Of a stretch of 64,000 nt of DNA, positions 2,331 to 19,563 are shown piece by piece. The stretch is taken from positions 3,648,001-3,712,000 of the forward strand of contig OY762069.1 of NCBI GenBank assembly GCA_963665095.1, written 5' to 3'. Position 1 is the stretch's first letter; every line of letters starts with the position of its first letter. The position numbers and the translations under genes are program-made. A model generated the notes under the pieces. That model ran no database searches, was not told the DNA's origin, and saw only the letters and a list, made by a program, of their open reading frames with translations. The stretch is from an uncultured Desulfobacter sp. GTDB lineage: Bacteria > Desulfobacterota > Desulfobacteria > Desulfobacterales > Desulfobacteraceae.

Positions 2331-3140
2331 TTAAAAAATTTCCGATGAAGCAATGCGGACATGCTCTGCAGATACCGTCATTGATTTTTCTGCCGCAGCA
2401 GCAATCAATGAGCCTCTGGCAAGATTATTCGCCTTTCGTAAAAGGCCGCCGGAGCCTTGATGAATCGCAGTCACCGCCTGGTCAGAAAAAAAGTTGGTGT
2501 CAACACCGCATAGTTTTAAATGATGGATCAGGTAAGTTTTCATTCCAGCCACATCCAGACCATCCAGATGGCTTTTAGCCACAATCCTGGATGCAAACGG
2601 GATTGACGTCCGGTACTGAAGCTTATCTATCAATGTCGGCTGACCTGCAAGGATCACAGGCAGCCAGGGCATGGCGTCTTTTTCAAATTGAACCAGGGTG
2701 TGAAGTTCGGCAAAGACTTCCATGCGAAGCAGAGATGCCTCATCTATAATCAAAACGGTTTTGATCTTTTTTCCCAGGACGAATTCACGTATTTCATTTT
2801 TAATAATGGAGATCATAACAGCGCGGGACGTCGATGTCCGCTCTATGCCCAGTTCTTCAACAATCTGCCGGTAAAGTTCCATGATGGAACCGCTTGAGGC
2901 CGTAACATAAAAGACTTTGTATTCCGAAGGGTGTAGGGATGAGGCGGCATACCTTAAGGCGGTGGACTTTCCGCTGCCCACATCCCCTGTGATAACCGCA
3001 CTGCAGCCAAGTCTTAAGGAATAATCAATCCGATTTTTAACGCCCGAGACCTCCGGGGTGACCAGGATATCATTGATTTCTATCTGTGCCGGGAAGGCCT
3101 CCCTATATAAGCCAAAAAAGGTACGATACATTTCACTCAT
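2331..3140 (-). CDS. ExeA/AAA_22-family ATPase (transposition helper)
   Basis: Walker A GDVGSGKST, Walker B LIIDEA, ILAGQP, SRI and GLLRKAN. Overlaps the transposase stop. Confidence 0.9.
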   Translation of the reverse strand: MSEMYRTFFGLYREAFPAQIEINDILVTPEVSGVKNRIDYSLRLGCSAVITGDVGSGKSTALRYAASSLHPSEYKVFYVTASSGSIMELYRQIVEELGIERTSTSRAVMISIIKNEIREFVLGKKIKTVLIIDEASLLRMEVFAELHTLVQFEKDAMPWLPVILAGQPTLIDKLQYRTSIPFASRIVAKSHLDGLDVAGMKTYLIHHLKLCGVDTNFFSDQAVTAIHQGSGGLLRKANNLARGSLIAAAAEKSMTVSAEHVRIASSEIF

Positions 3141-4393
3141 AACAGTTGCCCTCCCTTGTAATTTGAGGGTTCAGGCATAATCCGGATATCATTTTCGTTC
3201 CAGCGGTGCCGCTTGACCCGACAGTTCACAGCAAGGTCCACCGGGGTTAACAAGCCATAAGACTTTGCTTTATAGATAACTTCAGCCTGCAAAGGGGTGT
3301 CCTCATGGTACTTTACATCCACATGTCTGCCGATCAGCGCAACCGGGGCCTCAAACATGTTGCCGTCAAGGGTGATGGTTCGGTCCTTTGCCACCTTGCG
3401 CCGGGCGGTTTTGCGGAAGTGGTCTTTCAGATCCGGTGGGGCGGTACGGATGCACTCCATGGCCGAGGTAAATCTTTTAAACGGTGATTCGCCTGTGGAA
3501 CTGTGTTTACGCTGATGGTACTCATTATGAAGCCACTTCTCAAACGCCCCATTCAGATCATCCAGGGTCTTACCTGTAAATCTTTGCAGAAACTGAAGCC
3601 GAACCGTTCTGAACCAGCGCTCGATTTTACCTTTCCCCTGGGGTTTATATGGCCTTGCATGGATTAAAGCGATGGACAGAGACGCGGCTACATATTTTAA
3701 ATGATGGGATCTGAACGCAGGACCGTTATCTACATACAGCTTGCGGGGAAGCCCGCGGCTCAAAAAAGCTTGCTCCAGTACCATAAGATAGGTCTTCAGA
3801 TTCTCAGATAAATAAAAACCTGCAGCCGTAACCAGCCTGGAATGATCGTCCATAATGGCAATCAGGTACGTTTTTCTTTGCTTATCCTGAACCAGGACTG
3901 TAGGGCCGTGCATGACGTCGCTTTGCCACATATCATTGGGGTGCGGGGCTTCAAACTTTCTTCTATCCTCTGGCCGGGCCGTGTTCATTAGCCCCCGGCC
4001 GCGTAAAAAACGGTATACACTGGATGGACTGTATGTCTGGCATGTAGTTTTTTGAAGTGAACAGATCAATGTATCGACTGTCGCATCAGGCTGGTCTAAC
4101 CGGAGTTTGATTAGTTGAGATGCAGTCTCGTCATCGAATACCCTTGATTTTCCCTGGTCTGAACGGTCTTTGGGGTAAAGAGATTCTATTCGACCGTTAT
4201 ACTGCCGGACCCATCCCAGAATCGTACTTCTGGAAAGCCTGGTCCTTCCAGAATACGGGATGGACCATTTGCGGGCGCATTTCTGCTGTAAAATTCGTTC
4301 TTTTTCACCGTAATCAAAATTTGTTCCGGTCACAAATTCACAAATGACCCCAAACCTGAACACGGCAACCTCTTTTTTCTGATTTTCTGTCAT
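3137..4393 (-). CDS. DDE transposase (rve core, N-terminal HTH, Mu-transposase-like C-terminus)
   Basis: WQSDVM, IMDDHSR, YVDNG, GKIERWF; C-terminal RRKVAKDRTITLDG. Confidence 0.92.
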   Translation of the reverse strand: MTENQKKEVAVFRFGVICEFVTGTNFDYGEKERILQQKCARKWSIPYSGRTRLSRSTILGWVRQYNGRIESLYPKDRSDQGKSRVFDDETASQLIKLRLDQPDATVDTLICSLQKTTCQTYSPSSVYRFLRGRGLMNTARPEDRRKFEAPHPNDMWQSDVMHGPTVLVQDKQRKTYLIAIMDDHSRLVTAAGFYLSENLKTYLMVLEQAFLSRGLPRKLYVDNGPAFRSHHLKYVAASLSIALIHARPYKPQGKGKIERWFRTVRLQFLQRFTGKTLDDLNGAFEKWLHNEYHQRKHSSTGESPFKRFTSAMECIRTAPPDLKDHFRKTARRKVAKDRTITLDGNMFEAPVALIGRHVDVKYHEDTPLQAEVIYKAKSYGLLTPVDLAVNCRVKRHRWNENDIRIMPEPSNYKGGQLL

Positions 4394-4496
4394 ACTTCCT
4401 CCTTAAAATTTGGTTCTAAGGGCTTGTATGACAGTATGATCCTTCGGTAAATCACAGCCTTCGGTAGGGTGGTTTAAACCTGATCCAGCCCCATGG

Positions 4497-4943
4497 TTAA
4501 ATTGAACTGGTAACCGGGATTTTACCCATACCGATTAGCTTGATAAAACCAGCAACCACACCTTTGTCCCAACTGTTGGACAGGTAGGCCGCTATATTTC
4601 GTTTCAATGCAGTAAACCAAAAATGCTGTCGACTCCAGGAGAGTTCCGGCAGATACCGGTCTGTGTATAGACGACTCATAATGCTGGTAAGGATTTGCCA
4701 GATACTGGCCTGGAACCTCTTGAAAAAACCATATGGCTTCAATTTGAATACGGTTTTGCAATAGGGGCAGCGATATCGCTTCAAATACACCCCTTGATCA
4801 AATCCATCAAAAAAGGAGAGTACAAAGCCGTGTCCCCACAGCCTGGAGTCGTTGCAATGTGGACATCGTGACGGTTTTGGCCATGTAAAATTTTTGCCCT
4901 GCTTGAAAATTTGCTTGATATCAGCTTTGACCTTTATTATCAT
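4497..4943 (-). CDS. Small Zn-finger accessory protein of the transposon (DUF6431-like)
   Basis: CPHC...WGHG...RYRCPYC; first gene inside the element. Confidence 0.7.
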   Translation of the reverse strand: MIIKVKADIKQIFKQGKNFTWPKPSRCPHCNDSRLWGHGFVLSFFDGFDQGVYLKRYRCPYCKTVFKLKPYGFFKRFQASIWQILTSIMSRLYTDRYLPELSWSRQHFWFTALKRNIAAYLSNSWDKGVVAGFIKLIGMGKIPVTSSI

Positions 4944-5396: not shown

Positions 5397-5972
5397 TTAT
5401 CCTGTGGCTGCAAACAACTCCTTTTGTTTATTATATTTTTTCTGAGGCGTCTGCCTTGTACCAGCCATTTCAAGCAACAAGGTTGCAATTGTTGTCAACG
5501 CTGATCGAACAACTACACCATGCTGGCTTCTTACCCTTGTTTGTTCGAGGCCTTCCCTTTTTTTCATCAAATTGAAAGGACGTTCGCAGTTCTTCCGAAT
5601 CTAGATTGATTCTTGAGAACCTTGATGAAACGTCGGCATTGGCTGGAAATAACCACTATCAAAAGCCAGGACTCTTGATTTGGGGCATCTTGATTCGAAC
5701 ATACACTCACCGGGTGTTGTACCGCAGCCAATAACATAATACGACTTATCTCTTTTCTTCCGGCGCTTTCCACAATCACAATCCATGTCGGAATAGATTC
5801 GTACCTTTTTGCCCTTGATCTCAATTGTGCAAAGGGGATAGTTGATCTCTGATGGCAACTCAGTAGAATCAACGCCATGAATAACTGCGTTTTCAAGACA
5901 ACCAGATTTATAAAAATGATGGCCGTTCCCACCCGGTTCAGCACGGTTGCCCCTAAACAAAGGCACAAACAA
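5397..5972 (-). pseudogene. Degenerate DDE transposase (IS4/IS5-like superfamily)
   Basis: HGVDST motif, in-frame stop at 5601-5603, then RKNCERPFNLMKKREGLEQTRVRS. Too short for an intact enzyme, so an internal deletion is likely. Confidence 0.65.
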
Positions 5973-6310: not shown

Positions 6311-7864
6311 TTACAAATCCCTGGCAGCTCCCCGTGAACGGACTTTTTTTCTGCCAAAAGGGACCTTAAGTTTTTTCATACGGTTGCGCAGGGTGTTGGC
6401 ATTGATCCCAAGCAGCACTGCGGCACCGCCAGGACCGTCGATACGGCCCTTTGTCATCTCCAGGACCTGTTTGATATGAATGGCATTGACCCTGTCCAGG
6501 TTCAACTCCTGACTCATGGTTGTATCAGCCGGGGAGGGAGCCTTTTTTCCAAATGCATTGACCTCAAAATCCAGCAGCCCCCCCTGGTTCATAATCAGGG
6601 CTCTTTCCACAACATTTTCAAGCTCACGCACATTGCCCGGCCAGGAATAGGCCATGAGCCGGTCAATGGAATCCGGTGCAAGCCTGGGGATAATTCTCTT
6701 TTTCAGTTCCCGGGATTTTTTCTGTATCAGATACTGAACCAGCATGGGAATATCAGCCTGACGCTGCCGCAAGGGGGGAATCTGCACGGGAAACACTTTT
6801 ATCCTGAAGTAGAGGTCCTGCCGGAACTGCCCTTTTTTCAGCATGGCTTCCAGGTCCCGGTGGGTTGCCGCAATCACCCTGACATCCACTTTGATCTGGG
6901 CGGTACCACCCACACGCTCCAGCTCCTTTTCCTGGAGAACCCGCAGCAGCCGGATCTGGGCGTTCAATGGAAGCTCGCCGATCTCATCCAGAAACAAGGT
7001 TCCGGTATGGGCTCTTTCAAAACGCCCCCTTTTTCCCTGAACCGCACCGGTAAAGGCTCCTTTTTCATGGCCGAACAACTCACTGTCCAGAAGAGAGTCA
7101 GGGATGGCACCGCAGTTGATTTTTATAAACGGCCTGTTTCTTCTTCTGGATAAATTATGGATGGCATTGGCAATCACCTCCTTGCCTGTTCCGGTCTCTC
7201 CAAGCAGCAGCACAGGGCTGTCATGGTCTGCCACCTGGTGCACCATCTCCATTGCCGCACAAAGCCCTGAGTCCTGCCCCACAACCTCCTTGCCGGTCAT
7301 GCCGTATAATTCATCCTGGAGATACCGGTTGTCGTCTGCCAGGGCGTCTTTAATGCTGACAAGCTCCCTGTAGCGAAGTGCATTGGTAATGGCAACAGCA
7401 AAGGGTTTATTTAAAAGACGGATCAAATTAACATGGTCATCTGTAAACTGCCCTGGTTTTTCATTAAAAACAGTGACCATGCCCACTTCTTTGTTTTCAA
7501 GCATCAAATCCATGATAATGGCGGATCCATTGGAAAGGTCAAAAGAGTCCAGAGCAACTTTCGTATAGATATTTTCCTTCAGATTTTCAATATAGTGAAT
7601 CCCCTGAACCCAGTTCTCCTTTACGGATGCCCGCAGGTCCGGGGGCAGCTGTATCTGCTCTGACAAGGCCTGGCCGCAGGTTTGCGAAGCCATGGCAATG
7701 GTCTCTAAAATCCCTAGTTCATAATCATGCACATGAAAAGCCATGCGGTCGGCAGGCATGAAACCCTTTAGATACAAAAGGCACTTGTGCAATGCTGTTT
7801 CAATATCAAGGCTTGAACAGATCCTTAATATAGCTTTCATGAAAAATTCGGTTTTATCAACCAT
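6311..7864 (-). CDS. Sigma-54-dependent activator, GAF-AAA-HTH (FhlA/NifA-like)
   Basis: GETGTGKE, ELFGHEKGAFTGA, LFLDEIG, WPGNVREL, C-terminal Fis HTH. Confidence 0.95.
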   Translation of the reverse strand: MVDKTEFFMKAILRICSSLDIETALHKCLLYLKGFMPADRMAFHVHDYELGILETIAMASQTCGQALSEQIQLPPDLRASVKENWVQGIHYIENLKENIYTKVALDSFDLSNGSAIIMDLMLENKEVGMVTVFNEKPGQFTDDHVNLIRLLNKPFAVAITNALRYRELVSIKDALADDNRYLQDELYGMTGKEVVGQDSGLCAAMEMVHQVADHDSPVLLLGETGTGKEVIANAIHNLSRRRNRPFIKINCGAIPDSLLDSELFGHEKGAFTGAVQGKRGRFERAHTGTLFLDEIGELPLNAQIRLLRVLQEKELERVGGTAQIKVDVRVIAATHRDLEAMLKKGQFRQDLYFRIKVFPVQIPPLRQRQADIPMLVQYLIQKKSRELKKRIIPRLAPDSIDRLMAYSWPGNVRELENVVERALIMNQGGLLDFEVNAFGKKAPSPADTTMSQELNLDRVNAIHIKQVLEMTKGRIDGPGGAAVLLGINANTLRNRMKKLKVPFGRKKVRSRGAARDL

Positions 7865-8065: not shown

Positions 8066-8081
8066 TGGCACACCCATTGCT
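8066..8081 (+). promoter_or_regulatory. Sigma-54 -24/-12 promoter
   Basis: TGGCAC-ACCCA-TTGCT about 40 bp before the aminotransferase ATG, divergent from an enhancer-binding protein gene. Confidence 0.88.
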
Positions 8082-8122
8082 ATATAAATTTAAATTTGAA
8101 AAACAGCAAACCCGGAGGAAAC

Positions 8123-9499
8123 ATGACATCAACACACCCCGGACAGGTGAGCAGAAAAACAAAAACCCAGGTATTTAAACAATTCGGAGATCACATCTCC
8201 AGGGGACAGATCCGGTTTTTAACTGCCGGACACCTGGATATCCTTGAAAGAAAAAGAAAAGGGATCTGCTTTTCAGAAGCACAGACAGAAAGAACATTTC
8301 TGGACTGCTTTTCCTCTGCAGGTTCATTTAACACGGGCAGGGGAAACCAGAGTATTGCCCGGGCGGCCTGCGATCACGCCGGGGTAAGCGACATGGGCTC
8401 CTCCATGCTCCTCTCCCCTTTAAAGATCAGGCTTGCCCAGAAACTTGCAGACCTTGCGCCCGGGGACATGAATAAAGTGGTGCTTACCGGCAGCGGGGCT
8501 GACTCCATCGAAGCGGCCATAAAACTTGCCAGGGGCGCCACAGGAAGGGATGAAGTCATATCCATGGTAAAGGCGTACCACGGACATTCCGGATTCAGCC
8601 TGTCCGCAGGGGGAAAGGACTACTATAAAGAGTTGTTTGAGCCGCTCATGCCGGGGTTCCGGCTTGCTGCGTTCAACGATCTTGCCGCCGTAACCGCCAT
8701 GGCCTCGGAAAAGACCGCTGCCATCCTGCTGGAACCGGTCCAGGGAGAGGGCGGTATCCATGTGGCCACAGACGAGTATTTAAAAGGTTTAAGAAATCTT
8801 TGCGACAAACTTGGAATCATCCTTATTTTTGACGAAATCCAGACCGGGTTCGGACGCACCGGCAGGTTGTGGTTTTCCCAGCATTCAGGTGTTGTGCCCG
8901 ATATCATGGCCCTGGCCAAATCCATTGGCGGCGGCATATGCCCCAATGGCGCCATGGTGTACAGAGGCACAGAACAATTGACCGGGTATGTAAACAGATT
9001 TCCTTTTTTCCACAGGTCTTCCGGCGGGGGAAGCGATCTTGGGTGTGCCGTATCCTTAAAGGTTATTGACCACCTCATGGAAACCAGGCTGTGGGAAAAT
9101 GCCGAAAAAACAGGGGGGATGTTAAAGGCAGGACTGAACCGCATTATGGCCGAAAACAGCCGGATCATCAGGGAAGTCCGGGGCAAAGGGCTTATGATAG
9201 GCATTGAATATACCCAGGAGTTCATGGGAGTGCTCATGGCGGACTGCCTGTCCAAAAGCGGTATTTTTGCGGCCTATTCAGGCAATGCCCCCCAGGTCAT
9301 GAGGTTTATGCTCCCTTTAACAGTCACGGAACATGAGGTTAATGATTTTTTAGCCCGGTTTAAAAAAGCGCTGGCCCTTCAAAAGCGTTACCTGTTTTTC
9401 CTGCTGCCCCTGAGCAAAATCCCCATTGTGCGAAAATGGTTGAATGAAGACGATATTCTTGTTCCCATCAATGTCTTTGCCAGGAAATTCGGTCTTTAA
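8123..9499 (+). CDS. Class III PLP aminotransferase (putrescine/ornithine AT-like), Lys-bearing subunit
   Basis: SGADS, YHG, EPVQGEGG, DEIQTGFGRTG, PDIMALAKSIGGG. ATG 8123 follows GGAGG. Confidence 0.9.
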   Translation: MTSTHPGQVSRKTKTQVFKQFGDHISRGQIRFLTAGHLDILERKRKGICFSEAQTERTFLDCFSSAGSFNTGRGNQSIARAACDHAGVSDMGSSMLLSPLKIRLAQKLADLAPGDMNKVVLTGSGADSIEAAIKLARGATGRDEVISMVKAYHGHSGFSLSAGGKDYYKELFEPLMPGFRLAAFNDLAAVTAMASEKTAAILLEPVQGEGGIHVATDEYLKGLRNLCDKLGIILIFDEIQTGFGRTGRLWFSQHSGVVPDIMALAKSIGGGICPNGAMVYRGTEQLTGYVNRFPFFHRSSGGGSDLGCAVSLKVIDHLMETRLWENAEKTGGMLKAGLNRIMAENSRIIREVRGKGLMIGIEYTQEFMGVLMADCLSKSGIFAAYSGNAPQVMRFMLPLTVTEHEVNDFLARFKKALALQKRYLFFLLPLSKIPIVRKWLNEDDILVPINVFARKFGL

Positions 9500-9572
9500 C
9501 CCTGATATTCTAAACAAACCCCCGGCTGGATTTGAAATTCCATGAACGATCCGGGTCAAAGGAGTCTTCCCC

Positions 9573-10826
9573 ATGAAAGATACTGCCACAACGGCTCAAG
9601 CAGGCAATCTTGAACAATCGTTATTACACCAGGCCAAAAATCTTTTTTCCCAAAGCCTTGTTGATAATTTAACTGCTGCAGGCCATGATATCATTGAAAC
9701 CCGCAGCCAGGGGATCTATCTTTTTGATATAAACGATAAAGCCTATATTGACTGCTATTGCGGTGCAGGCACATACAATCTTGGCAGGAACTGCAAAAAG
9801 GTGCAGGCCGAACTTCAAAATGCTGTCCTGAATACAGATTGCGGCAACTTTATTCTTATTTCCGAAGAAAAAGCTGACCTGGCCTCACACCTTGCCCGGT
9901 TCACGGGCAACGACCTTTCCTGCTGCCTTTTTACCGTAGTCCGGGGGGAGGCCATGGATGCAGCCTGTAAAATTGCCAGGGGCCATACCGGTAAAAAGCA
10001 GTTAATTGCTGCCGACGGAGGGTGGCACGGGGAGACCGGTTTTGCCTTGGGGCTTTCCCGGCGCCCGGACAAGGAGCAGTTCGGCAGGCTGATCCCGGAA
10101 CAGACAATTGTTGAATTCAACAATATAAAGGAGGCTGAAAAAGCCATCACCCATGACACTGCTGCATTTATCCTGGAACCGGTCCAGGCGGAAAACGCCT
10201 GCTGCATTGCAGATAAAGAATATCTGGAAGCTGTGAGGCAGCTTTGCAGCGAACACGGGGCATTGCTGATTTTTGATGAAACCCAGACCGGGTTCGGCCG
10301 CACCGGCCACAAATTTGCCCGGGATTATTCTGGTGTTGAACCGGACATCCTTTTATTTGGAGAAGCGGTTACATCCGGGGTTTTCCCCATGACAGGGCTT
10401 ATGTTTACCCCCCGGGTCAAATCTTTTTTTGATCTGCATCCTTTAATTCACCTGTGCACCTTTGGCGGGCATGATGTGGGGTGCAGGGTTGGTGTCAGGG
10501 CCCTTGAGGTCTATACAGAAACCCGGCCCTGGGAAAATGCCGCAAAACAGGGCAAAACACTGCTCAATCACCTTACATCCCTGAAAAACGATCATCCTGA
10601 TTTGATGACCCGGGTAAACGGACTTGGACTTTTAATTTCCGCAACCTTTGCAGATGAACCCCTTGCCCGGTCATTCTGCATACATGCAAAAAACAATGGA
10701 TTTTTTGTTGCCCAGGGCCTGGTTGACCCCAAATCTGTTATTTTCCGGCCTGCCCTGACCATGACAGATGAAGAAACCGGGCTGTTAATCCAGGCTGTGA
10801 CTGCGGCCGTACAGGCGTTGCCATGA
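9573..10826 (+). CDS. Class III aminotransferase homolog lacking the catalytic lysine
   Basis: EPVQAE and DETQTGFGRTG are kept, but PDILLFGEAVTSG has Glu at the Lys position. TFGG is kept. Confidence 0.85.
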   Translation: MKDTATTAQAGNLEQSLLHQAKNLFSQSLVDNLTAAGHDIIETRSQGIYLFDINDKAYIDCYCGAGTYNLGRNCKKVQAELQNAVLNTDCGNFILISEEKADLASHLARFTGNDLSCCLFTVVRGEAMDAACKIARGHTGKKQLIAADGGWHGETGFALGLSRRPDKEQFGRLIPEQTIVEFNNIKEAEKAITHDTAAFILEPVQAENACCIADKEYLEAVRQLCSEHGALLIFDETQTGFGRTGHKFARDYSGVEPDILLFGEAVTSGVFPMTGLMFTPRVKSFFDLHPLIHLCTFGGHDVGCRVGVRALEVYTETRPWENAAKQGKTLLNHLTSLKNDHPDLMTRVNGLGLLISATFADEPLARSFCIHAKNNGFFVAQGLVDPKSVIFRPALTMTDEETGLLIQAVTAAVQALP

Positions 10827-12514
10827 AAATCCTGTATAATATCAAGGCCTTTGCCATGGACAAAGAGTGCACCCGAGCCACGGCCATTGCCTGGGAAAAC
10901 GGAACCATCACCAGGGTGGGAGAAAAACAGGATCTGATCAGGGAGTGCAAAGATGCGGAAACAATAGACGGCCAGGGCCTTACCCTGGTTCCGGCCTTTA
11001 TTGATCCGCATATCCACTTTATGGACGGAACTGTTTACCAGGGTGCACTGGATTGTTCCCCTGCTGCTGCACCCGACATCCAGGCCCTGAAAGTATTATT
11101 GGCAAAAGAGGCTGCAAAACACAAAAAAGGAGAGTGGATTGTTGCCCAGGGCTATGACCCCTGGGCATATCCCCAAAAAAGGACCCCGTTGCGGCACGAC
11201 CTTGACCAGGCCTGCCCGAACAACCCTGTGGTAATTATTCACTACTCATTTCATGAATGCGCTGCCAACTCCAGGGCCCTTGCCCTGGCAGGAATTGACA
11301 GGGATTCACTGCCCCCGTTTGCAGGAATTATTAAAAAAGATCGCCAGGGCAATCCCACAGGACACCTTATTGAAACTGCCATGGAAAAGGTGCTGCGCCT
11401 TTCCAAAAAAGAATTGATTGCCCGGTCTGACCAGAAGATTTTGCAGCGGACCCAGACAGCCCAGCAAAAATTGTTTGAATTTGGCATCACAAGAATCGGG
11501 GATCCTGCCGTGGATCATTTAAGCCGTAAATTATACCAGCAGGCATTTGAACAAGGCATGCTGAAACTAACGGTCTTCATGTTCCCATGCAATGAACAAA
11601 ACATGCTCAAGCTCCCTTTGGACAAGCTTGACCAGCCGTTTCAATACAGAGACAATGAATGCCTGAAAACAGGGCATTTAAAAATTTTTCTGGACGGGGC
11701 AGACCGGACCGCCATGGCGTTAACCGGGAAGCAGCTTTTCCAAACCATTGCAATGACATTCTGGGATGCTGTCAGAACCATGTCCCTGACACCAGTTAAG
11801 ACAACCATGAGAAGCCCGGTAAAACTGAAAAAAGACGGATTGTTCCACTTTGGACTGATTCTGGCAGAACCGGACAAGTGCGGGCAGCTGGTTCAGAAAG
11901 CGGTTAAAAAAGGATTTTCTCCTGCCTTTCATGCCATTGGTAATGAGGCGGTTCAACTGGCGGTTGAATTGATTTCCCAGAACATGCCAAAGGCTTCCCG
12001 GTCCGGCAAAACCGTCCCCCCTCCCAGGATTGAACATGGTCTGTTCCTGAACAATGACCTGATCCGCCGGATTAAGGAGTCCGGGGCTGCAGTGGTGACC
12101 CAGCCCCTGTTTTTAACCCATATGGACAAGGAAAACCTGCCCCACATGCCGGAAATAAAGAAACTGCCCCTGCGTTCCATGATCGACCAGGGCATCCCTG
12201 TGGCCGGAAGCTCGGATTTCCCGGTGGTATCCTGCAACCCGCTGCTGGGAATTGAGCATGCGGTCACAAGGGTGACAAAAGGAAGTGAAACCCTGGATCA
12301 GCAGGAAGCTGTTACAGTGGAACAGGCCTTTGCCATGTACACCAGGCAGGCGGCTTTTGTGCTTGGATGCCTGGATGACACCGGCACCCTTTCACCAGGA
12401 AAACGGGCTGATTTTATTTTATTGTCCGGCGATCCTCTGGACAGCAGCAATGTCTGCTGGCATAAGGTCAAGGTGCAGAAAACCTATATGAACGGAAAAG
12501 TGGTGTTTCCGTAA
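10823..12514 (+). CDS. Amidohydrolase 3 (YtcJ-like) metal-dependent hydrolase
   Basis: PAFIDPHIH, KIFLDG, HAIGN, RIEH, GSSDFP, GKRADF. Start overlaps the upstream stop (ATGA). Confidence 0.9.
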   Translation: MKILYNIKAFAMDKECTRATAIAWENGTITRVGEKQDLIRECKDAETIDGQGLTLVPAFIDPHIHFMDGTVYQGALDCSPAAAPDIQALKVLLAKEAAKHKKGEWIVAQGYDPWAYPQKRTPLRHDLDQACPNNPVVIIHYSFHECAANSRALALAGIDRDSLPPFAGIIKKDRQGNPTGHLIETAMEKVLRLSKKELIARSDQKILQRTQTAQQKLFEFGITRIGDPAVDHLSRKLYQQAFEQGMLKLTVFMFPCNEQNMLKLPLDKLDQPFQYRDNECLKTGHLKIFLDGADRTAMALTGKQLFQTIAMTFWDAVRTMSLTPVKTTMRSPVKLKKDGLFHFGLILAEPDKCGQLVQKAVKKGFSPAFHAIGNEAVQLAVELISQNMPKASRSGKTVPPPRIEHGLFLNNDLIRRIKESGAAVVTQPLFLTHMDKENLPHMPEIKKLPLRSMIDQGIPVAGSSDFPVVSCNPLLGIEHAVTRVTKGSETLDQQEAVTVEQAFAMYTRQAAFVLGCLDDTGTLSPGKRADFILLSGDPLDSSNVCWHKVKVQKTYMNGKVVFP

Positions 12515-12702: not shown

Positions 12703-14187
12703 ATGGTTTTCTCACCCACCTTTTTGTTTTTCGTAAAAAAGCGCTGCAAGCGGAATTGGGATGAACATTCGATCCCCATGTTTAAAGCATCCAACATTCA
12801 ATACGAGATTGACGGTCGCCTCCAAGGCGTTGCTCCAGGTGGCATAGGGCTGATTCATATGCTTGCAAAAAGGACCGGTCTTCTGAAAGAAATTGATAAG
12901 GAGCTCGAACTGCTTAAACGTCATTTGCCCTATCACGAATCAGATCATGTCGCCAACATGGCGTATAATATTCTTGCCGGAGGCTCCTGCCTTCAGGATA
13001 TTGAACTGCTCAGAAACAATGAAGCCTGGTTGAATGCTCTCCATGCAGAAATTATCCCAGATCCAACTACAGCGGGAGACTTTTTGCGCCGGTTTACCAA
13101 AAAAGATATCATAGCACGGCTTGACGTCAAAAATACCATCCGAAAAAAGGTATGGGAAAAGCAGCCGCAAAACTTCAAGAAAGAAGCCATTATCAATATC
13201 GACGGCACCATCAGTGAGACAACCGGCGAGTGCAAACAGGGCATGGACATCTCCTATAATGGAAAGTGGGGATATGCCCCGCTGGTGGTTTCTCTGGAAA
13301 AAACAAGGGAGCCTCTTTATATTATCAATCGATCCGGCAATGCTCCGTCCCAGCTCGAATCTGCAGGGTGGGTGGACAAGGCCCTTGATCTGCTGGAGGG
13401 CACTTTTAAAAAATTATACGTTCGGGGAGATACTGATGTCAGCCTTACTTCCAACTTTGACAAATGGGATCAACGCTGTACCTTTGTCTTTGGCATGGAC
13501 GCCAGATCAAACCTGATAAAACTGGCCGATGGCCTTTTAGATGCCGAATGGGAGATGGTTGAAAAACAGCCACAAACAATCAAAACAAGCCCCAGAAAAC
13601 GTCCTGAAAATGTTAAACTTCAGGTGGTCAAAAAACGGGACTTCAAACGTCTTGAGACCGCCTGTGAACATATAGCCGAGTTTGAATATAAACCCGGTAA
13701 ATATCGAAACTCCTACAGGATGATCGTCCTGCGTAAAACAATAAACGAGTGCAGAGGCGAACGTCTGCTGTTTGACGATATCCGTTACTTTTTTTACATC
13801 ACCAACGATTGGAAAAAATCGGCCAGGCAGCTGGTCGATTTTTACCGAAAACGGGCTGATCACGAAAATGATATTGATCAGTTGAAACATGGCGTACATG
13901 CTATGGATAACCCCTCTGATCCTCTGAATGCCAACTGGGCCTATATGGTTATTGCATCTTTGGCATGGGATCTGAAGGCCTGGTATGGAATGATGATGCC
14001 ATATCGATCATTAGGGCTTTCGATTGTCCGTATGGAATTCAAACGTTTCATCCAGACATTTATAAATATCCCCTGCCTGATCATACGGTCCGGCAGGGCT
14101 AGTAAATACCGAATCATTGGTTATAACAACAGGCTCGCAAGCGTGTTCAAGTTTTTTAACTCTTTAAAGACTGTCTGGGTTACATGA
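12703..14187 (+). CDS. IS1380-family transposase, possibly 5'-truncated
   Basis: PYHESDH, IPDPTTAGDF, INIDGT, GYAPL, VRGDTD, YRKRADHENDIDQLK. The N-terminal residues look non-native and no matching left inverted repeat was found. Confidence 0.85.
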   Translation: MVFSPTFLFFVKKRCKRNWDEHSIPMFKASNIQYEIDGRLQGVAPGGIGLIHMLAKRTGLLKEIDKELELLKRHLPYHESDHVANMAYNILAGGSCLQDIELLRNNEAWLNALHAEIIPDPTTAGDFLRRFTKKDIIARLDVKNTIRKKVWEKQPQNFKKEAIINIDGTISETTGECKQGMDISYNGKWGYAPLVVSLEKTREPLYIINRSGNAPSQLESAGWVDKALDLLEGTFKKLYVRGDTDVSLTSNFDKWDQRCTFVFGMDARSNLIKLADGLLDAEWEMVEKQPQTIKTSPRKRPENVKLQVVKKRDFKRLETACEHIAEFEYKPGKYRNSYRMIVLRKTINECRGERLLFDDIRYFFYITNDWKKSARQLVDFYRKRADHENDIDQLKHGVHAMDNPSDPLNANWAYMVIASLAWDLKAWYGMMMPYRSLGLSIVRMEFKRFIQTFINIPCLIIRSGRASKYRIIGYNNRLASVFKFFNSLKTVWVT

Positions 14188-14642: not shown

Positions 14643-15692
14643 TTGAAAATATTTTACTCCTGGCAGAGCGATATTGAAGGTAAATACAATCGCAATTTCA
14701 TTAAAGACTGCCTTGAAAAAGCTATAAAGCAGATAAACAATGAGTTGAAAATTGAAGAAGCTATCAGGTTAGACCATGACACAAAAAATGTGTCAGGCAC
14801 ACCTGATATAGTAACAACCATTTTATCAAAAATTGAAGAAAGCGATATTTTTATCGGAGATTTAACCTTTGTAGCAAAAAGTATTCATAATAACAAATTA
14901 AATCCAAACCCAAATGTTCTCATTGAGTTAGGTTACGCGCTAAGTACACTTGGAGACTCAAGAGTCATCAATATCATGAATACTGCCTATGGCAAACCAG
15001 ACAATAATTTACCCTTCGACCTTGCCCACAAACGATGGCCTATCCAGTACAATCTATCAGAGGTTAATTACAGTGAAAAAACAGAAATTAAAACCTCACT
15101 CATTGTTTCGATAAAGTCAGCATTATTTCCATTTTTAAACAAACCCAAAGCTTCTACCCCACAATTTCAATCTCAAGCTGACAAAATTTTGCATAGAGAA
15201 AAGCTGAGAAAAGAGTTTGATAATGAGTTTCTTAAGATAAGATCACAGAATCTAAGAAGAGACTCAATTATAAGGGATGTAGACCGGGTTGATGGGTATC
15301 CAAATATTGACGATGATGAAACAGGCATTTCGCCTTGGTTTAAGGTTGCTATTCTCGAAACATACACCAAAGGAGTACGTGTTGGTTTACAGGTCGTAGG
15401 TCTAAAAGAATGTGAAGGTGGCTATAGATTTGTCGATTACAAGACAAAGGAAGAAAGTGATTTAAGAGCTTATTTGGTGGGCGAAATTCCTTTTGACTCA
15501 ATAGTTACTGTAAACTGGGAAGGCGATGAATATTACTACTTTCCACACCTCTATTGCCACTTCAACAATGACGGCGAGCCATATGAAAAACTAATGTATT
15601 GTGAGAAGGTCGACATGGGAAATGGTATTGATTATTACAAGGAAATTTCTGATTATAATTCTGTAAGAAGCAATACAATGTCATTAACTTAA
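14643..15692 (+). CDS. NDT/TIR-like nucleotide-processing domain protein with unknown C-terminal domain; 3' end clipped by IS4
   Basis: IFYSWQSD, SDIFIGDLT, NPNVLIELGYA, LPFD. AT-rich. The last codons (MSLT-stop) come from the IS4 inverted repeat. Confidence 0.7.
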   Translation: MKIFYSWQSDIEGKYNRNFIKDCLEKAIKQINNELKIEEAIRLDHDTKNVSGTPDIVTTILSKIEESDIFIGDLTFVAKSIHNNKLNPNPNVLIELGYALSTLGDSRVINIMNTAYGKPDNNLPFDLAHKRWPIQYNLSEVNYSEKTEIKTSLIVSIKSALFPFLNKPKASTPQFQSQADKILHREKLRKEFDNEFLKIRSQNLRRDSIIRDVDRVDGYPNIDDDETGISPWFKVAILETYTKGVRVGLQVVGLKECEGGYRFVDYKTKEESDLRAYLVGEIPFDSIVTVNWEGDEYYYFPHLYCHFNNDGEPYEKLMYCEKVDMGNGIDYYKEISDYNSVRSNTMSLT

Positions 15693-17171
15693 GAATGAAC
15701 AGGATTTAACTCGCTGAATTTATATGTAAATATTGAAATTTTAAGATCGACATGATATACTCAAATCTAATAATAACAGCGAATTATCAAAAAGAAAGGA
15801 GCATATCATGCCGAAACTTTTTAACCAATCTAACAGCGTTGACACGGAACCTGATTTCCAATATCTGTGCCAGGTTGATCGGATTTCTTCAAGAAATCAT
15901 CAACTCTGATCAATTTATCAAGCAGCACCACCAAAGTCCAACCGATTTTATCCGCCAACGAAAACTTCCTTTTTCAACCCTGATATTTTTTCTCATAAAT
16001 ATGGTAAAAGGCTCATATCAGGACGAACTTGATCATTTTTTCAAATCTATCTTTGGATTTGAAGTGGTTAAACGAATTGTCTCCAAAGCCGCTTTGACTA
16101 AAGCAAGAATGAAGCTGAAATATGAAGCTTTCATAGACCTCAATATGCGTTTGACCAGCTACTTTTATGAAAATTTTAAACCAAAGGAATGGCACGGGTT
16201 CAATTTGCTTGCCATAGACGGAACAACTGTTCGTTTGCCTCGAATAGAAGCTATCTCGGAGCATTTCGGGGCCTGGAATCCAAGGCAGGGAGACAAATGC
16301 CCCATGGCGAGAGTTTCACAAATGTTTGACCCCTTAAATAAAATCTCAGTGGATGCCATCATTGAATCCAAAAGCAGTGGAGAACGTGAATTGGCAGCAT
16401 TCCATTTCTTGAATTTAATGCCAAACGATTTAGTCTTCCTTGATCGAGGCTACCCGGCCTATTGGCTTTTTAATCTCATCTTGTCCCGTGGTGCTAATTT
16501 TTGTGCTCGAATCCAGCGTAAACGATGGAAAGTGGTCCGCCAGTTCTACAATTCAGGCAAAAAGGAAAAAATCATATCTTTGTCCGTATTCCCAAGTTCT
16601 ATCAAGCCCTGTAAAGAGATGGGCCTGGATCTCATCTCCTTGAAATTGAGATTAATCCGAGTGGAACTGGAAACCGGAGAATCCGAGGTTCTGATCACCT
16701 CCTTGCTTGATACACAGAGCCACCCACGCGAACTATTTGCAGATCTTTATCATCTCAGATGGCCTGTGGAAGAAGATTACAAAACAATGAAACAGTGGAT
16801 TGAAATAGAAAACTTCTCCGGCAAATCGATTCTTTCAGTGTATCAGGATTTTCATGCTAAAGTGTTTTCAAAAAACCTGATCTCAGCATTGATATACCCG
16901 ACTCAGGCCGTAATTGACAAAAATACCGAAGATCGACTTTATCGATATCAAAGAAATTTTGCCCAGACGTTATCAAAGATAAAGGATGTGCGCCCTCTCT
17001 TGTTCCTCAGGCCTTTAGAGACCGTGACCAGGTTGATATCCGATATCCAAGAGATAGTGGTAAAAACTATTGAACCGGTAAGGCCGGGACGAAAGTACCC
17101 GAGGAACTTTAATAATAGGGGCGGTCGTTTTCACTATGGATACCAGCCGCTCCGTTAAGTTAATGACATTG
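15676..17171 (+). mobile_element. IS4-family insertion sequence, 1496 bp
   Basis: Perfect 17-bp inverted repeats CAATGTCATTAACTTAA (15676-15692) and TTAAGTTAATGACATTG (17155-17171). No flanking duplication. Confidence 0.92.
15752..17158 (+). CDS. IS4-family transposase
   Basis: AIDGT, LDRGY, YHLRWPVEEDYKTMK (YREK motif). Start position uncertain. Confidence 0.9.
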   Translation: MIYSNLIITANYQKERSISCRNFLTNLTALTRNLISNICARLIGFLQEIINSDQFIKQHHQSPTDFIRQRKLPFSTLIFFLINMVKGSYQDELDHFFKSIFGFEVVKRIVSKAALTKARMKLKYEAFIDLNMRLTSYFYENFKPKEWHGFNLLAIDGTTVRLPRIEAISEHFGAWNPRQGDKCPMARVSQMFDPLNKISVDAIIESKSSGERELAAFHFLNLMPNDLVFLDRGYPAYWLFNLILSRGANFCARIQRKRWKVVRQFYNSGKKEKIISLSVFPSSIKPCKEMGLDLISLKLRLIRVELETGESEVLITSLLDTQSHPRELFADLYHLRWPVEEDYKTMKQWIEIENFSGKSILSVYQDFHAKVFSKNLISALIYPTQAVIDKNTEDRLYRYQRNFAQTLSKIKDVRPLLFLRPLETVTRLISDIQEIVVKTIEPVRPGRKYPRNFNNRGGRFHYGYQPLR

Positions 17172-17227
17172 ACTGACAAATAATAAAAAAATTGTTACCT
17201 TGGCAATTAAAGAAAATGTGGCCTAAT

Positions 17228-18268
17228 ATGTTCAATCCCAAATTCACCATAACCAACCGCATGACATCAGCCATCACCCAAATTGAACGAGCTCGGGGTT
17301 TTCTGGAAGCGGCAATATTATCCGATGACTGGGTGAGGGATATGGGAAATCAGGCCCTTATAAAAGAGGCCCATCATACCACCCATATCGAAGGGACACG
17401 GCTGACATTGGATCAGGCAGAACGTTTATGGAAAGGTGAAGCTGTACCTGAAGCCGATCCGGATGATACCAGAGAACTGTTGAACTACCGGACTGCTTTT
17501 GAATTTGTATCCCAATGTCTGGATAGTGGTGATCCAATTACTGAAGGAATGGTACGTGAAATTCACCGAAAGCTGGTTGAGGGGGTTCGGGGCGGCAAAG
17601 CAGGTCCGGGCAACTATCGGCGGATTCAAAATTATGTGGCCAATTCATCTACAGGTAAAGTGATTTATACACCACCATCTGCGGTGGAAGTGCCGATCAT
17701 GATGTCTGAATTGGTAAAATGGCTGAATTCGAATCTTGAAATCCACCCGGTCTTGATCAGTGGGATTGCCCAATTCCAACTGGTCCATATCCATCCGTTC
17801 CTTGATGGTAACGGGCGAGCTTCAAGGCTGTTATCAACCCTCTGTCTTTACAAGGCCGGATATGATTTCAAACGGTTGTTCACCATCAGTGAATATTATG
17901 ACCGTGACAGACCGACTTTTTATAAAAAAATACAGAGTGTTCGTGAAAACGACATGGATATGACCGGATGGCTGGACTATTTCATCACCGGTCTGGAAAC
18001 TCAAATGATTGAGGTTAAAAAGCGTGGCGAACGGGTAATCCGAAGAGATGTTATGGTTCAAAAACACGGGTTGAATGAACGGCAAGGAAAGGCCATAGAG
18101 TTTTTATTAACCCATGGAAAACTCTCTATAAAAGACTTTGAAGAACTTTGTCCGGAAGTGAACCGACGAAGTTTACAGCGAGACCTAAAAGCATTTTCCG
18201 ACAAAGGTTTGGTCAAAGAAGCCGGAACCGGCCCTACAGATCCAACACGCTATTATATTCTATCATAG
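17228..18268 (+). CDS. Fic-domain protein with C-terminal winged HTH
   Basis: [27 protein letters not shown]. Confidence 0.93.
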
Positions 18269-18429: not shown

Positions 18430-19563
18430 ATGAAGATGAATCGGATCAATTTAACATTCTGGCAGGTGCTGTTGGTATCAGCGCTGTTGATTAACGCTTT
18501 CTCACTCCCTGCTACTGCCTGTACAGGCATTCGATTAACCGCTAAAGACGGAGGTGTTGTCTATGGCAGAACTATGGAATGGGGAGCTTTCGACCTACAT
18601 ACAAGAGTCGCCATCATTCCGAGAGGGTACAAGTATGTCGGCTTAACGCCGGATGGAAACAATGGAAAAACTTATACCACAAATTATGGTATTGTTGCGC
18701 TCGACATGGTTGGAAAAGATTTCATCTCGGATGGAATGAATGAAAAAGGTTTGGCGCTGGGTATGTTTTACCACCCCGGATATGCCGTGTACCCCGAATA
18801 CAAAAAAGAGAATGCCCAAAACAGTATTTCAAGCCAGGAGCTTGCAAACTATATTTTAGGTGAATTTGCAAGCGTGCAGGAAGTGCGTGATGGCTTGCCC
18901 AATGTAACTGTAGTAGGCGTTGTTGAAAAAGCTATTGGTATAATTGTTCAAGGCCATTGGATGGTTACTGACAAAACCGGAGAATCGATTGTCATTGAAT
19001 ATACTGAAGGGAAATTAAAGATTCATGATGCCCCTCTTGGAGTTATTACCAATGCCCCAAACTACGATTGGCACATGACCAATTTAAGCAATTATGTAAA
19101 CATATCTATGTTTTCCGTAGAACCTAAGGAATTAGAAGGAGTCAAGTTTTCACCAACCGGAGCAGGTTCGGGTATGATAGGCTTGCCAGGTGACAACACG
19201 CCACCTTCGCGTTTTGTCAGAGCTGTTGCCTGGACACAAACAGCAAGAAAAACCGAAACAGCCGATGAAACTCTTTATGAGGCTTTCAGGATATTGGATA
19301 ATTTTAATCTCCCACTGGGCCCCGATGGAGCAGAAGGCGCGGGCCACGCTGGCGACACTGACTTGATGCGTTCATCAACTATCTGGACCAGCGCCTGGAA
19401 CCTTAAAGACTTGACATTGAATTACCACACACAGCACAATCGACGTATAAGGCAAGTCGATATGAAAGCTATAAATTTTGGTGAACTTGATGGTGAGATA
19501 GTGCATGTCGTTTTGGATGATAAAAAAGAACAGGATCTAAAAGATATAACGCCAAAAAAATAG
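18430..19563 (+). CDS. Choloylglycine hydrolase/penicillin V acylase-family Ntn hydrolase, secreted
   Basis: Signal peptide ending ATA-CTG (N-terminal Cys nucleophile), GRTMEW, DGMNEKGL, ITNAP, LPGDNTPPSRF. Confidence 0.92.
   Translation: MKMNRINLTFWQVLLVSALLINAFSLPATACTGIRLTAKDGGVVYGRTMEWGAFDLHTRVAIIPRGYKYVGLTPDGNNGKTYTTNYGIVALDMVGKDFISDGMNEKGLALGMFYHPGYAVYPEYKKENAQNSISSQELANYILGEFASVQEVRDGLPNVTVVGVVEKAIGIIVQGHWMVTDKTGESIVIEYTEGKLKIHDAPLGVITNAPNYDWHMTNLSNYVNISMFSVEPKELEGVKFSPTGAGSGMIGLPGDNTPPSRFVRAVAWTQTARKTETADETLYEAFRILDNFNLPLGPDGAEGAGHAGDTDLMRSSTIWTSAWNLKDLTLNYHTQHNRRIRQVDMKAINFGELDGEIVHVVLDDKKEQDLKDITPKK

Follow-up and report, generated by a model that had tools for sequence, protein, structure and literature searches.

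A candidate two-subunit class III aminotransferase with a divided active site in Desulfobacter and other bacteria

Introduction

Class III aminotransferases are treated as homo-oligomers. In PatA (YgjG) of Escherichia coli (PDB 4uox), the active site is formed by two subunits, with Thr332* and Phe327* donated by the partner chain, as set out in the structural passages of PMC4244111. Here we describe two adjacent genes for PatA-like class III aminotransferases in a 64,000-nucleotide stretch of DNA (hereafter, the window) from an uncultured Desulfobacter sp. (assembly GCA_963665095.1, contig OY762069.1, positions 3,648,001 to 3,712,000). Gene A (8123..9499, + strand, 458 aa) would encode the catalytic subunit and gene B (9573..10826, + strand, 417 aa) a non-catalytic partner. 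PatA resembles the pair in its class III fold (TM score of 0.92 between 4uox and the B model) and in the Glu-Arg switch kept in A. It differs from the pair in being a homo-oligomer in which, according to the same passages, every site is complete (PMC4244111), in the entrance residues Phe91, Gln119, Lys183, and Leu419, and in that A and B score far below the NCBIfam cut-off for PatA.

Heteromeric enzymes of this general type that depend on pyridoxal 5'-phosphate (PLP) have been described outside class III. SerTA (Ser4/Ser5) of Serratia sp. ATCC 39006, reported in 2024, presents itself as the first heteromeric aminotransferase (PMC11726168). Like A and B, it is encoded by tandem genes, one of which lacks the Lys; its heterodimer unit has one active site, and its dead chain contributes phosphate contacts and a gate, parallel to the role we propose for B (PMC11726168, in the sections on structure). 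Unlike A and B, SerTA belongs to the sugar-aminotransferase family, Ser4 is truncated (24.6 kDa) whereas B is full-length, and the substrate is carrier-bound within a biosynthetic cluster; loss of the partner loop, as seen in A, is not described for Ser5 in those sections (PMC11726168). A and B are both full-length PF00202 proteins with no AmCP cluster among their neighbours, and so fall outside the SerTA family. In eukaryotic serine palmitoyltransferase, the paralogs SPT1 and SPT2 form a fold-type I heterodimer with the Lys in one subunit; a single site is presumed and both chains are required, as for our pair by proposal, although SPT is a membrane complex of the alpha-oxoamine synthase family that catalyzes decarboxylative condensation (PMC6148460, in the parts that treat subunit composition). 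Engineered Fcy1 illustrates how duplication followed by complementary losses can yield an obligate heterodimer (PMC10888846, from the account of its design); that is a laboratory cytosine deaminase, whereas A/B occurs in nature, alongside intact relatives and another such pair.

We found no heteromeric class III aminotransferase among the papers listed by full-text searches, most subscription papers being outside reach, and the portions of an aminotransferase review (PMC9309667) retrieved under the terms tried hold no relevant mention of heteromers. The A/B pair is a candidate for a widespread heterodimer with cleanly partitioned halves and, with its intact relatives and a separate second pair, would let the model of gene duplication and subsequent complementary decay be tested directly in a natural system. 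The genes are now annotated as putrescine or acetylornithine aminotransferases. Either one expressed alone is predicted to be inactive, which would hide from biocatalysis a transaminase with a wide hydrophobic pocket.

Results and Discussion

Apparent Complementary Losses in Adjacent Genes

Both proteins match PF00202 over the full domain (269 bits for A and 231 bits for B; cut-off 30.5) and share 31% identity. Against the PatA models of NCBIfam (NF008570, TIGR03372), A scores 311 bits and B 237 bits, far under the equivalog cut-off of 612, and PigE is the second-best NCBIfam match of A. PatA 4uox is the best solved relative of A, of B, and of the intact family C described below; no closer solved structure was found. 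In AlphaFold2 models (pLDDT 87.9 and pTM 0.89 for A; pLDDT 90.7 for B), B is predicted to fold normally, as a class III protein of fold-type I.

The first-pass annotation of the window, made from the sequence alone, had described two reciprocally degenerate aminotransferases and proposed a composite active site, and each of the motifs it quoted is present. In A, the phosphate loop SGADS spans residues 124-128, ALAKSIGGG carries Lys266 (AAA codon at 8918), and HRSSGGGS places Ser300 (9020) at the position of PatA Thr332*. In B, Arg124 (9942) of VVRGEA replaces the phosphate-loop Gly, Glu264 of LFGEAVTSG (GAA codon, 10362..10364, + strand) stands in place of the Schiff-base Lys, and HLCTFGGH supplies Thr296 (10458). 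The pattern extends well past these motifs. A keeps Gly125, Tyr152, Glu209, Asp237, Gln240, Lys266, and Arg394; B retains Phe93, Leu291, and Thr296-Phe297-Gly-Gly and has lost the ring-stacking aromatic residue and the keto-acid Arg.

Residue counts draw on 176 A and 180 B sequences, all distinct, comprising the top 120 of each protein search plus the full-length frames from 80 loci (split or short frames excluded); positions were mapped onto 4uox through alignments, with site residues as named in the active-site description of PMC4244111. At the Lys300 position all 176 A sequences have Lys and all 180 B sequences Glu, and at Gly150 every A sequence scored (175/175) has Gly and every B sequence (180/180) Arg. 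Tyr fills the Phe180 position in 176/176 A, whereas B varies there (W 91, C 47, and S 20 of 180), and Arg426 (Arg394 in A) is conserved in 176/176 A and in 0/178 B. Lys266, Asp237, Gly125, and Tyr152 thus occur together in one chain, invariant across 175-176 A sequences. The positions that reach into the partner site show the reverse. Thr occupies the Thr332* position in 180/180 B vs 4/176 A, where His (59), Ser (48), Leu (17), Phe (17), Tyr (11), Met (9), and others are found; 117 of the 176 have His, Leu, Phe, Tyr, Met, or Trp there, and the following residue is Phe in 0/174 A. Leu fills the Phe327* position in 171/180 B, whereas A varies there, and the position of Gln119 is Phe in 179/179 B and in 15/174 A, where it varies. 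PMC4244111 does not star Gln119 in its site description; we infer that the corresponding B Phe93 loop acts in trans. Judged from these alignments, A keeps the residues of its own-subunit site and B those donated to a partner, a complementary loss. In the A protein of this window Ser stands in for the Thr, which taken alone is a conservative exchange; that the position is unconstrained in A is read from the family-wide counts.

Sequencing error or a private mutation at Glu264 was considered and ruled out. Contigs from three runs of three studies, one of them possibly the source, cover the stretch with the Glu codon unchanged, and the codon is GAG in 41 and GAA in 28 of the homologous loci (69 of 74 scored). 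The exchanges of Lys for Glu and Gly for Arg are both invariant (180/180) and therefore no error; the first-pass annotation had asked whether the K-to-E change is conserved, and no ortholog of B with Lys was encountered.

Further substitutions bear on specificity. His155 occupies the PatA Lys183 position in 174 of 176 A sequences, so that the Arg that binds the alpha-carboxylate in acetylornithine, ornithine, and GABA aminotransferases (AcOAT, OAT, GABA-AT) is absent, and A does not belong with these enzymes by that residue. The narrow PatA entrance is replaced throughout (Phe91 by Ala66, Leu419 by Gly387, and Lys183 by His155 in A; Phe327* by Leu291 and Gln119 by Phe93 in B), and the A/B entrance is predicted to be wider and more hydrophobic than that of PatA. 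A also carries a longer C-terminal tail (median 49 aa, vs 2 in B and 11 in C), modeled as helices at 403-431, 434-441, and 443-455. Tail comparison and the AlphaFold2 model delimit an A-specific helical, hydrophobic or amphipathic extension at residues 420-458 (9380..9496, + strand), which in the model could possibly serve as a lid or a membrane contact.

Co-occurrence Across Phyla

As loci we used the best 80 of 167 confirmed B relatives in species-representative genomes, many of them short. Gene A lies directly upstream of gene B in 74/80, that is, in all 74 informative loci, the other six beginning at a contig edge; the 74 include one fused frame (L068) and four loci with A split into two frames. 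Searches that started from A, with four candidates scored per genome and some loci repeating the B-based set, gave the same picture. Among 400 genomes of the same phylum there were five A matches, all followed by B (5/5), and among 351 genomes of the phylum of G404 there were 13, of which 11 have B and two are cut by contig ends; B follows A in 16/16 informative A loci. The gene pairing that the first-pass annotation had suggested checking is thus conserved from both sides, and tandem paralogs of which one lacks the Lys, the hallmark of one-site heteromeric PLP enzymes, are the rule here (74/74 and 16/16).

Going by record names, the loci come from Desulfobacterota, Spirochaetota, Myxococcota, Bacteroidales, Hydrogenedentes, Nitrospiraceae, SAR324, and Thermovirgaceae, and cultured carriers include Desulfoluna spp. 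and Desulfosudis oleivorans. A metagenome scan with the A alignment (2 of 64 parts) returned one A-type locus, on a 1.9-kb contig. Distances among A and among B proteins co-vary (Spearman 0.81, 67 pairs). In L068 (6345-9158), A and B form one 937-aa frame joined by GTEPGS repeats.

Relatives With Undivided Sites

Family C combines the motifs of A and B in a single chain, with both Lys and Thr present in 120/120 top matches to one query. Some of its genes stand alone and others form a tandem with a gene of family D, whose members retain the Lys but carry Ser in place of the Thr. Among columns conserved at 90% or more in family C, which is a narrow sample (n = 170), 54 are kept by both A and B; A alone keeps 48, B alone 18, and the remaining 50 are conserved in neither. 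In trees A and B are each monophyletic and group with C and a further family, E, apart from PatA-like outgroups; one careful tree makes A and B sisters (95/85). P0372, on a 3-kb NCBI contig, is a sister of B that has the phosphate-loop Arg with the Lys intact, and possibly represents a half-way stage toward B.

A profile search of 1.84 billion representatives yielded three further Lys-less proteins, with Arg or His instead. A second pair occurs in two Hydrogenedentota genomes (L218:7956-10591, + strand; L219:6120-8752, - strand), where a gene with Lys replaced by His that retains HISTFGG overlaps a Lys-bearing gene with HYTESAGS, in an order reversed relative to A/B. The proteins P0381, P0388, P0389, and P0513 belong to this type (the gene with His or Arg for Lys keeps HISTFGG; the Lys-bearing gene has HYTESAGS). 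The pair is preceded by a gene that looks like the DUF6206 genes found next to family E. Of the 135 genomes searched in the phylum of G401, these 2 gave such loci. The pair was found in 0/351 and 0/401 genomes elsewhere with four candidates scored per genome, and therefore is not shown to be absent there. The second catalytic subunit nests in family E, and grouping it with A is rejected even with the trait columns removed (approximately unbiased test, p=9e-47); a common origin of the two Lys-less groups, B and B2, is not rejected (p=0.32). Because the second catalytic subunit cannot group with A, the donated loop was lost in a Lys-bearing subunit beside a Lys-less partner at least twice.

Altered Thr-Phe-Gly-Gly loops are also seen in the Lys-bearing relatives P0378, P0380, P0399, P0410, P0397, P0408, and P0415, and further split pairs may exist among such proteins. 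In the E-branch (L108-L110; P0393, P0409, P0433, P0458, P0501) the Glu-Arg switch is absent from the members viewed, and DUF6206, APH-type kinase, or NAD-binding reductase domains lie next to the aminotransferases or are fused to them; these proteins may be something other than plain transaminases.

A Putative Heterodimer

Each gene has lost the half-site that the other keeps, and the two lie side by side in many phyla; therefore they likely encode the two subunits of one enzyme. Our preferred reading, to which we give a probability of about 0.78, is that A and B assemble into an obligate heterodimer in which just one PLP site works. Site 1, made of the A core and B loops, would bind PLP. To it A would contribute Gly125 of the phosphate loop, Tyr152 for ring stacking, Asp237, Gln240, Lys266, and the Glu209-Arg394 switch, and B would contribute Thr296, Phe297, Leu291, and, if that loop acts in trans, Phe93. 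Site 2, made of the B core and A loops, would be dead and possibly plugged by the invariant Arg124 and Glu264 of B. The pair probably descends from an intact homodimer resembling family C, through gene duplication and complementary decay of the two copies.

Several observations weigh against this reading. B is not wholly degenerate: the Lys and phosphate-loop Gly are gone, but Asp235 (179/180), Glu207 (180/180), and for the most part Gln238 (170/180) remain, own-site residues that would be dispensable in a dead site. Ser or Thr occupies the Thr position in 52/176 A sequences and family D likewise has Ser with the Lys intact, so that some A homodimers might work. In the 27 loci that allow the comparison, A co-varies with alanine dehydrogenase (0.62-0.67) nearly as well as with B (0.76). 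The L068 fusion is known from a single metagenome-assembled genome, has a repeat linker, and lacks about 55 N-terminal residues of the B half (its first helix); faulty assembly or read-through might account for it. In 4/74 loci (L001, L059, L067, L075) gene A is broken into two frames. The sister relationship of A and B is absent from a larger quick tree and from a tree without the trait columns, and a B+E grouping is not rejected (p=0.34).

The residues that B keeps are open to another interpretation, a heterodimer with two different pockets in which the B site binds an effector, an amine, or non-covalent PLP or pyridoxamine 5'-phosphate through Asp235, Glu207, Gln238, Glu264, Arg124, and the gained Arg392, and so regulates A. 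B has acquired a series of near-invariant residues (Arg124, Asn208, Cys210, Arg211, Glu264, Arg392), and P0372, the sister of B, has the Arg together with an intact Lys. On the other hand, the ring-stacking, His155, Gly387, and Arg394 positions are variable in B, the A loops that would complete a B pocket are the most variable of all (entropy 2.7-3.0 bits), and the acids kept by B may be structural. We regard a second, regulatory pocket as improbable.

Possible Pathway and Substrate

The gene downstream of the pair encodes an Amidohydro_3 metallo-amidohydrolase (10823..12514, + strand; PF07969, 251 bits), whose start overlaps the stop of gene B (ATGA, 10823-10826); the first-pass annotation had called it translationally coupled. 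It carries DPHIH (61), HYSFHE (140), LKIFLDG (286), FHAIG (369), RIEHG (402), and SSDFP (463), motifs that supply the metal ligands in this family, and it has a hydrophobic insert common to the amidohydrolases of other A/B loci. Neighbours were annotated by scanning representatives of recurrent clusters (26 proteins); GC-rich shadow reading frames, which have no Pfam family or lie opposite real genes, were ignored. Across the 80 loci these neighbours are TetR (39), alanine dehydrogenase (32), Zn-alcohol dehydrogenase (10), and molybdopterin oxidoreductase (6), with Amidohydro_2 beside 15 loci and Amidohydro_3 beside 12, never both. A, for its part, retains the Glu-Arg switch (Glu209-Arg394) of true transaminases.

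The recurrent neighbours suggest amide hydrolysis, amine transfer to pyruvate, which would be the usual acceptor, and release of ammonia. In the proposed route, the neighbouring amidohydrolase would split an N-acyl amine into amine and acid, A/B would convert amine and pyruvate into a carbonyl compound and alanine, and alanine dehydrogenase, where present, would release ammonia. A described parallel is FumI of Sphingopyxis sp. MTA144, in whose pathway, as outlined in the pertinent passages of PMC3136697, a hydrolase frees a long-chain amino-polyol and FumI moves the amine to pyruvate, giving alanine; it is encoded by one gene and lies outside the PDB matches listed for A and B; the analogy drawn here is one of pathway. 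The amide hydrolysis and transamination proposed earlier is thus plausible, with an amidohydrolase of either family beside 27/80 loci. Against it, 53/80 have no such amidohydrolase in the DNA available, the window amidohydrolase shares no more than 24-27% identity with its counterparts at other loci, and three queries found no alanine dehydrogenase in this genome (97% complete, single contig).

For the substrate, a hydrophobic amine has about even odds. Our lead candidate is a lipid amine with a long chain, perhaps of the sphingoid type; a sphingoid-type base as such is rather unlikely. The hint comes from relatives: SCP2 and an APC permease lie beside 17/18 C/D regions, and eight C/D genomes of one family additionally have a split transketolase and an SCP2-like protein. 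The operon of L194-L197, L203, and L206-L208 (family f21 of the same phylum) and of L116 reads TetR, C, SCP2, D, and APC permease, continuing with split transketolase, SCP2-like protein, permease, and alanine dehydrogenase. Given transketolase chemistry, such an operon would be fitted to deaminate and then cleave lipids of the 2-amino-1,3-diol kind. In L198 a lone C gene is accompanied by TetR, alanine dehydrogenase, and Amidohydro_3 genes of the families that also occur at A/B loci. However, SCP2, permease, and transketolase are beside 0/80 A/B loci, so that the lipid hint is borrowed from relatives and the substrate is a guess; this genome has no SCP2, SCP2-like, or close transketolase orthologs (best 30-35%). 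All in all, A/B is likely an uncharacterised two-subunit aminotransferase, with deamination of fatty amines predicted from its residues and neighbours. A broader scenario, which we consider speculative and rather unlikely, is that obligate one-site heterodimers splitting a shared site arose at least twice from an intact homodimer acting on long-chain lipid amines, that the intact stage (C), the tandem of two intact genes (C+D), the half-way stage (P0372), and the fully split stage (A/B and the Hydrogenedentota pair) are all extant, and that they serve an undescribed anaerobic route for sphingolipids or fatty amides. If so, ceramide-like amides would yield sphingoid-type bases as a source of nitrogen and carbon.

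The same heterodimer might instead act on a polyamine of the N-acyl-putrescine type, polyamines being the substrate class of PatA. PatA is the best PDB and NCBIfam match of both proteins, an APC permease lies beside relatives, and elsewhere in this genome (6429515-6439715) another Amidohydro_3 gene directly precedes a PatA-like aminotransferase gene whose product retains the Lys; viewed by eye, the surrounding cluster resembles polyamine catabolism. The scores of 311 and 237 bits against a cut-off of 612, the replacement of Phe91, Gln119, Lys183, and Leu419, and the presence in the genome of a separate PatA-like gene, with Lys and an HGK motif, make a polyamine substrate improbable for A/B. 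Slightly less probable again is operation in the synthetic direction, with alanine dehydrogenase supplying alanine and a fatty aldehyde or ketone being aminated, as by the related PigE. Transamination is reversible, PigE ranks second among the NCBIfam matches of A, and alanine dehydrogenase is found in 32/80 loci, but the neighbours are hydrolases, TetR repressors, and, in relatives, permeases, and no acyltransferase or carrier-protein family is among the annotated clusters found in at least three loci. Least probable is that A works by itself as a homodimer, with B a distinct pseudo-enzyme (chaperone, scaffold, or sensor) that is inherited along with it in the operon. In favour are the Ser that replaces the Thr in this A and in 48/176, the presumed activity of family D with Ser, and the co-variation of A with alanine dehydrogenase, little below that with B; against it stand the 117/176 A sequences in which the Thr is replaced by His, Leu, Phe, Tyr, Met, or Trp, the conservation in B of exactly the loops that reach into the partner's site, and the same reciprocal pattern in the second pair.

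Promoter and Mobile Surroundings

Gene A starts at ATG 8123 with GGAGG in front, and a gap of 73 nt separates it from gene B, which has its own AGGAG. Upstream, 43 nt before gene A, an exact match to the sigma-54 -24/-12 element TGGCAC-N5-TTGC (8066..8080, + strand) is the single one in the window, where 0.18 would be expected (18 of 100 shuffles gave one). Divergent from it is a gene for a GAF-domain sigma-54 enhancer-binding activator (6311..7864, - strand, 517 aa) with the GAFTGA motif and a Fis helix-turn-helix. A 67% ortholog occupies the same place in locus L001 and a 48% relative occurs in L050; the activator is likely a local regulator of the cluster. The sigma-54/GAF operon described by the first-pass annotation therefore stands for this locus, but not in general. 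With up to one mismatch the element is found in 0/75 regions upstream of A reading frames in related loci, L001 having just a sigma-54-like element with three mismatches, by eye. General sigma-54 control of A/B loci is ruled out by these counts; sigma-54 control is local to this locus, and TetR (39/80 loci) is the usual neighbour elsewhere.

Mobile elements flank the cluster: an integrase-core transposase with an AAA ATPase upstream (2331-4943, - strand), an IS1380 transposase directly downstream (12703-14187, + strand), and another DDE transposase (15752-17158, + strand). No A or B orthologs were found among 11 genomes of the same family or order searched, which together with the flanking transposases suggests that the cluster is a mobile region. 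Repeats in the intergenic DNA consist only of short AT-rich pairs. Further downstream lie genes for a weak TIR-like nucleotide-binding protein (14643-15692; below cut-off), a Fic protein (17192-18268), and a linear amide C-N hydrolase of the CBAH family (18430-19563). Downstream of the activator, a 123-aa Cys-rich open reading frame (5601-5972, - strand; CDCG...CG...CPK) has no Pfam or NCBIfam match.

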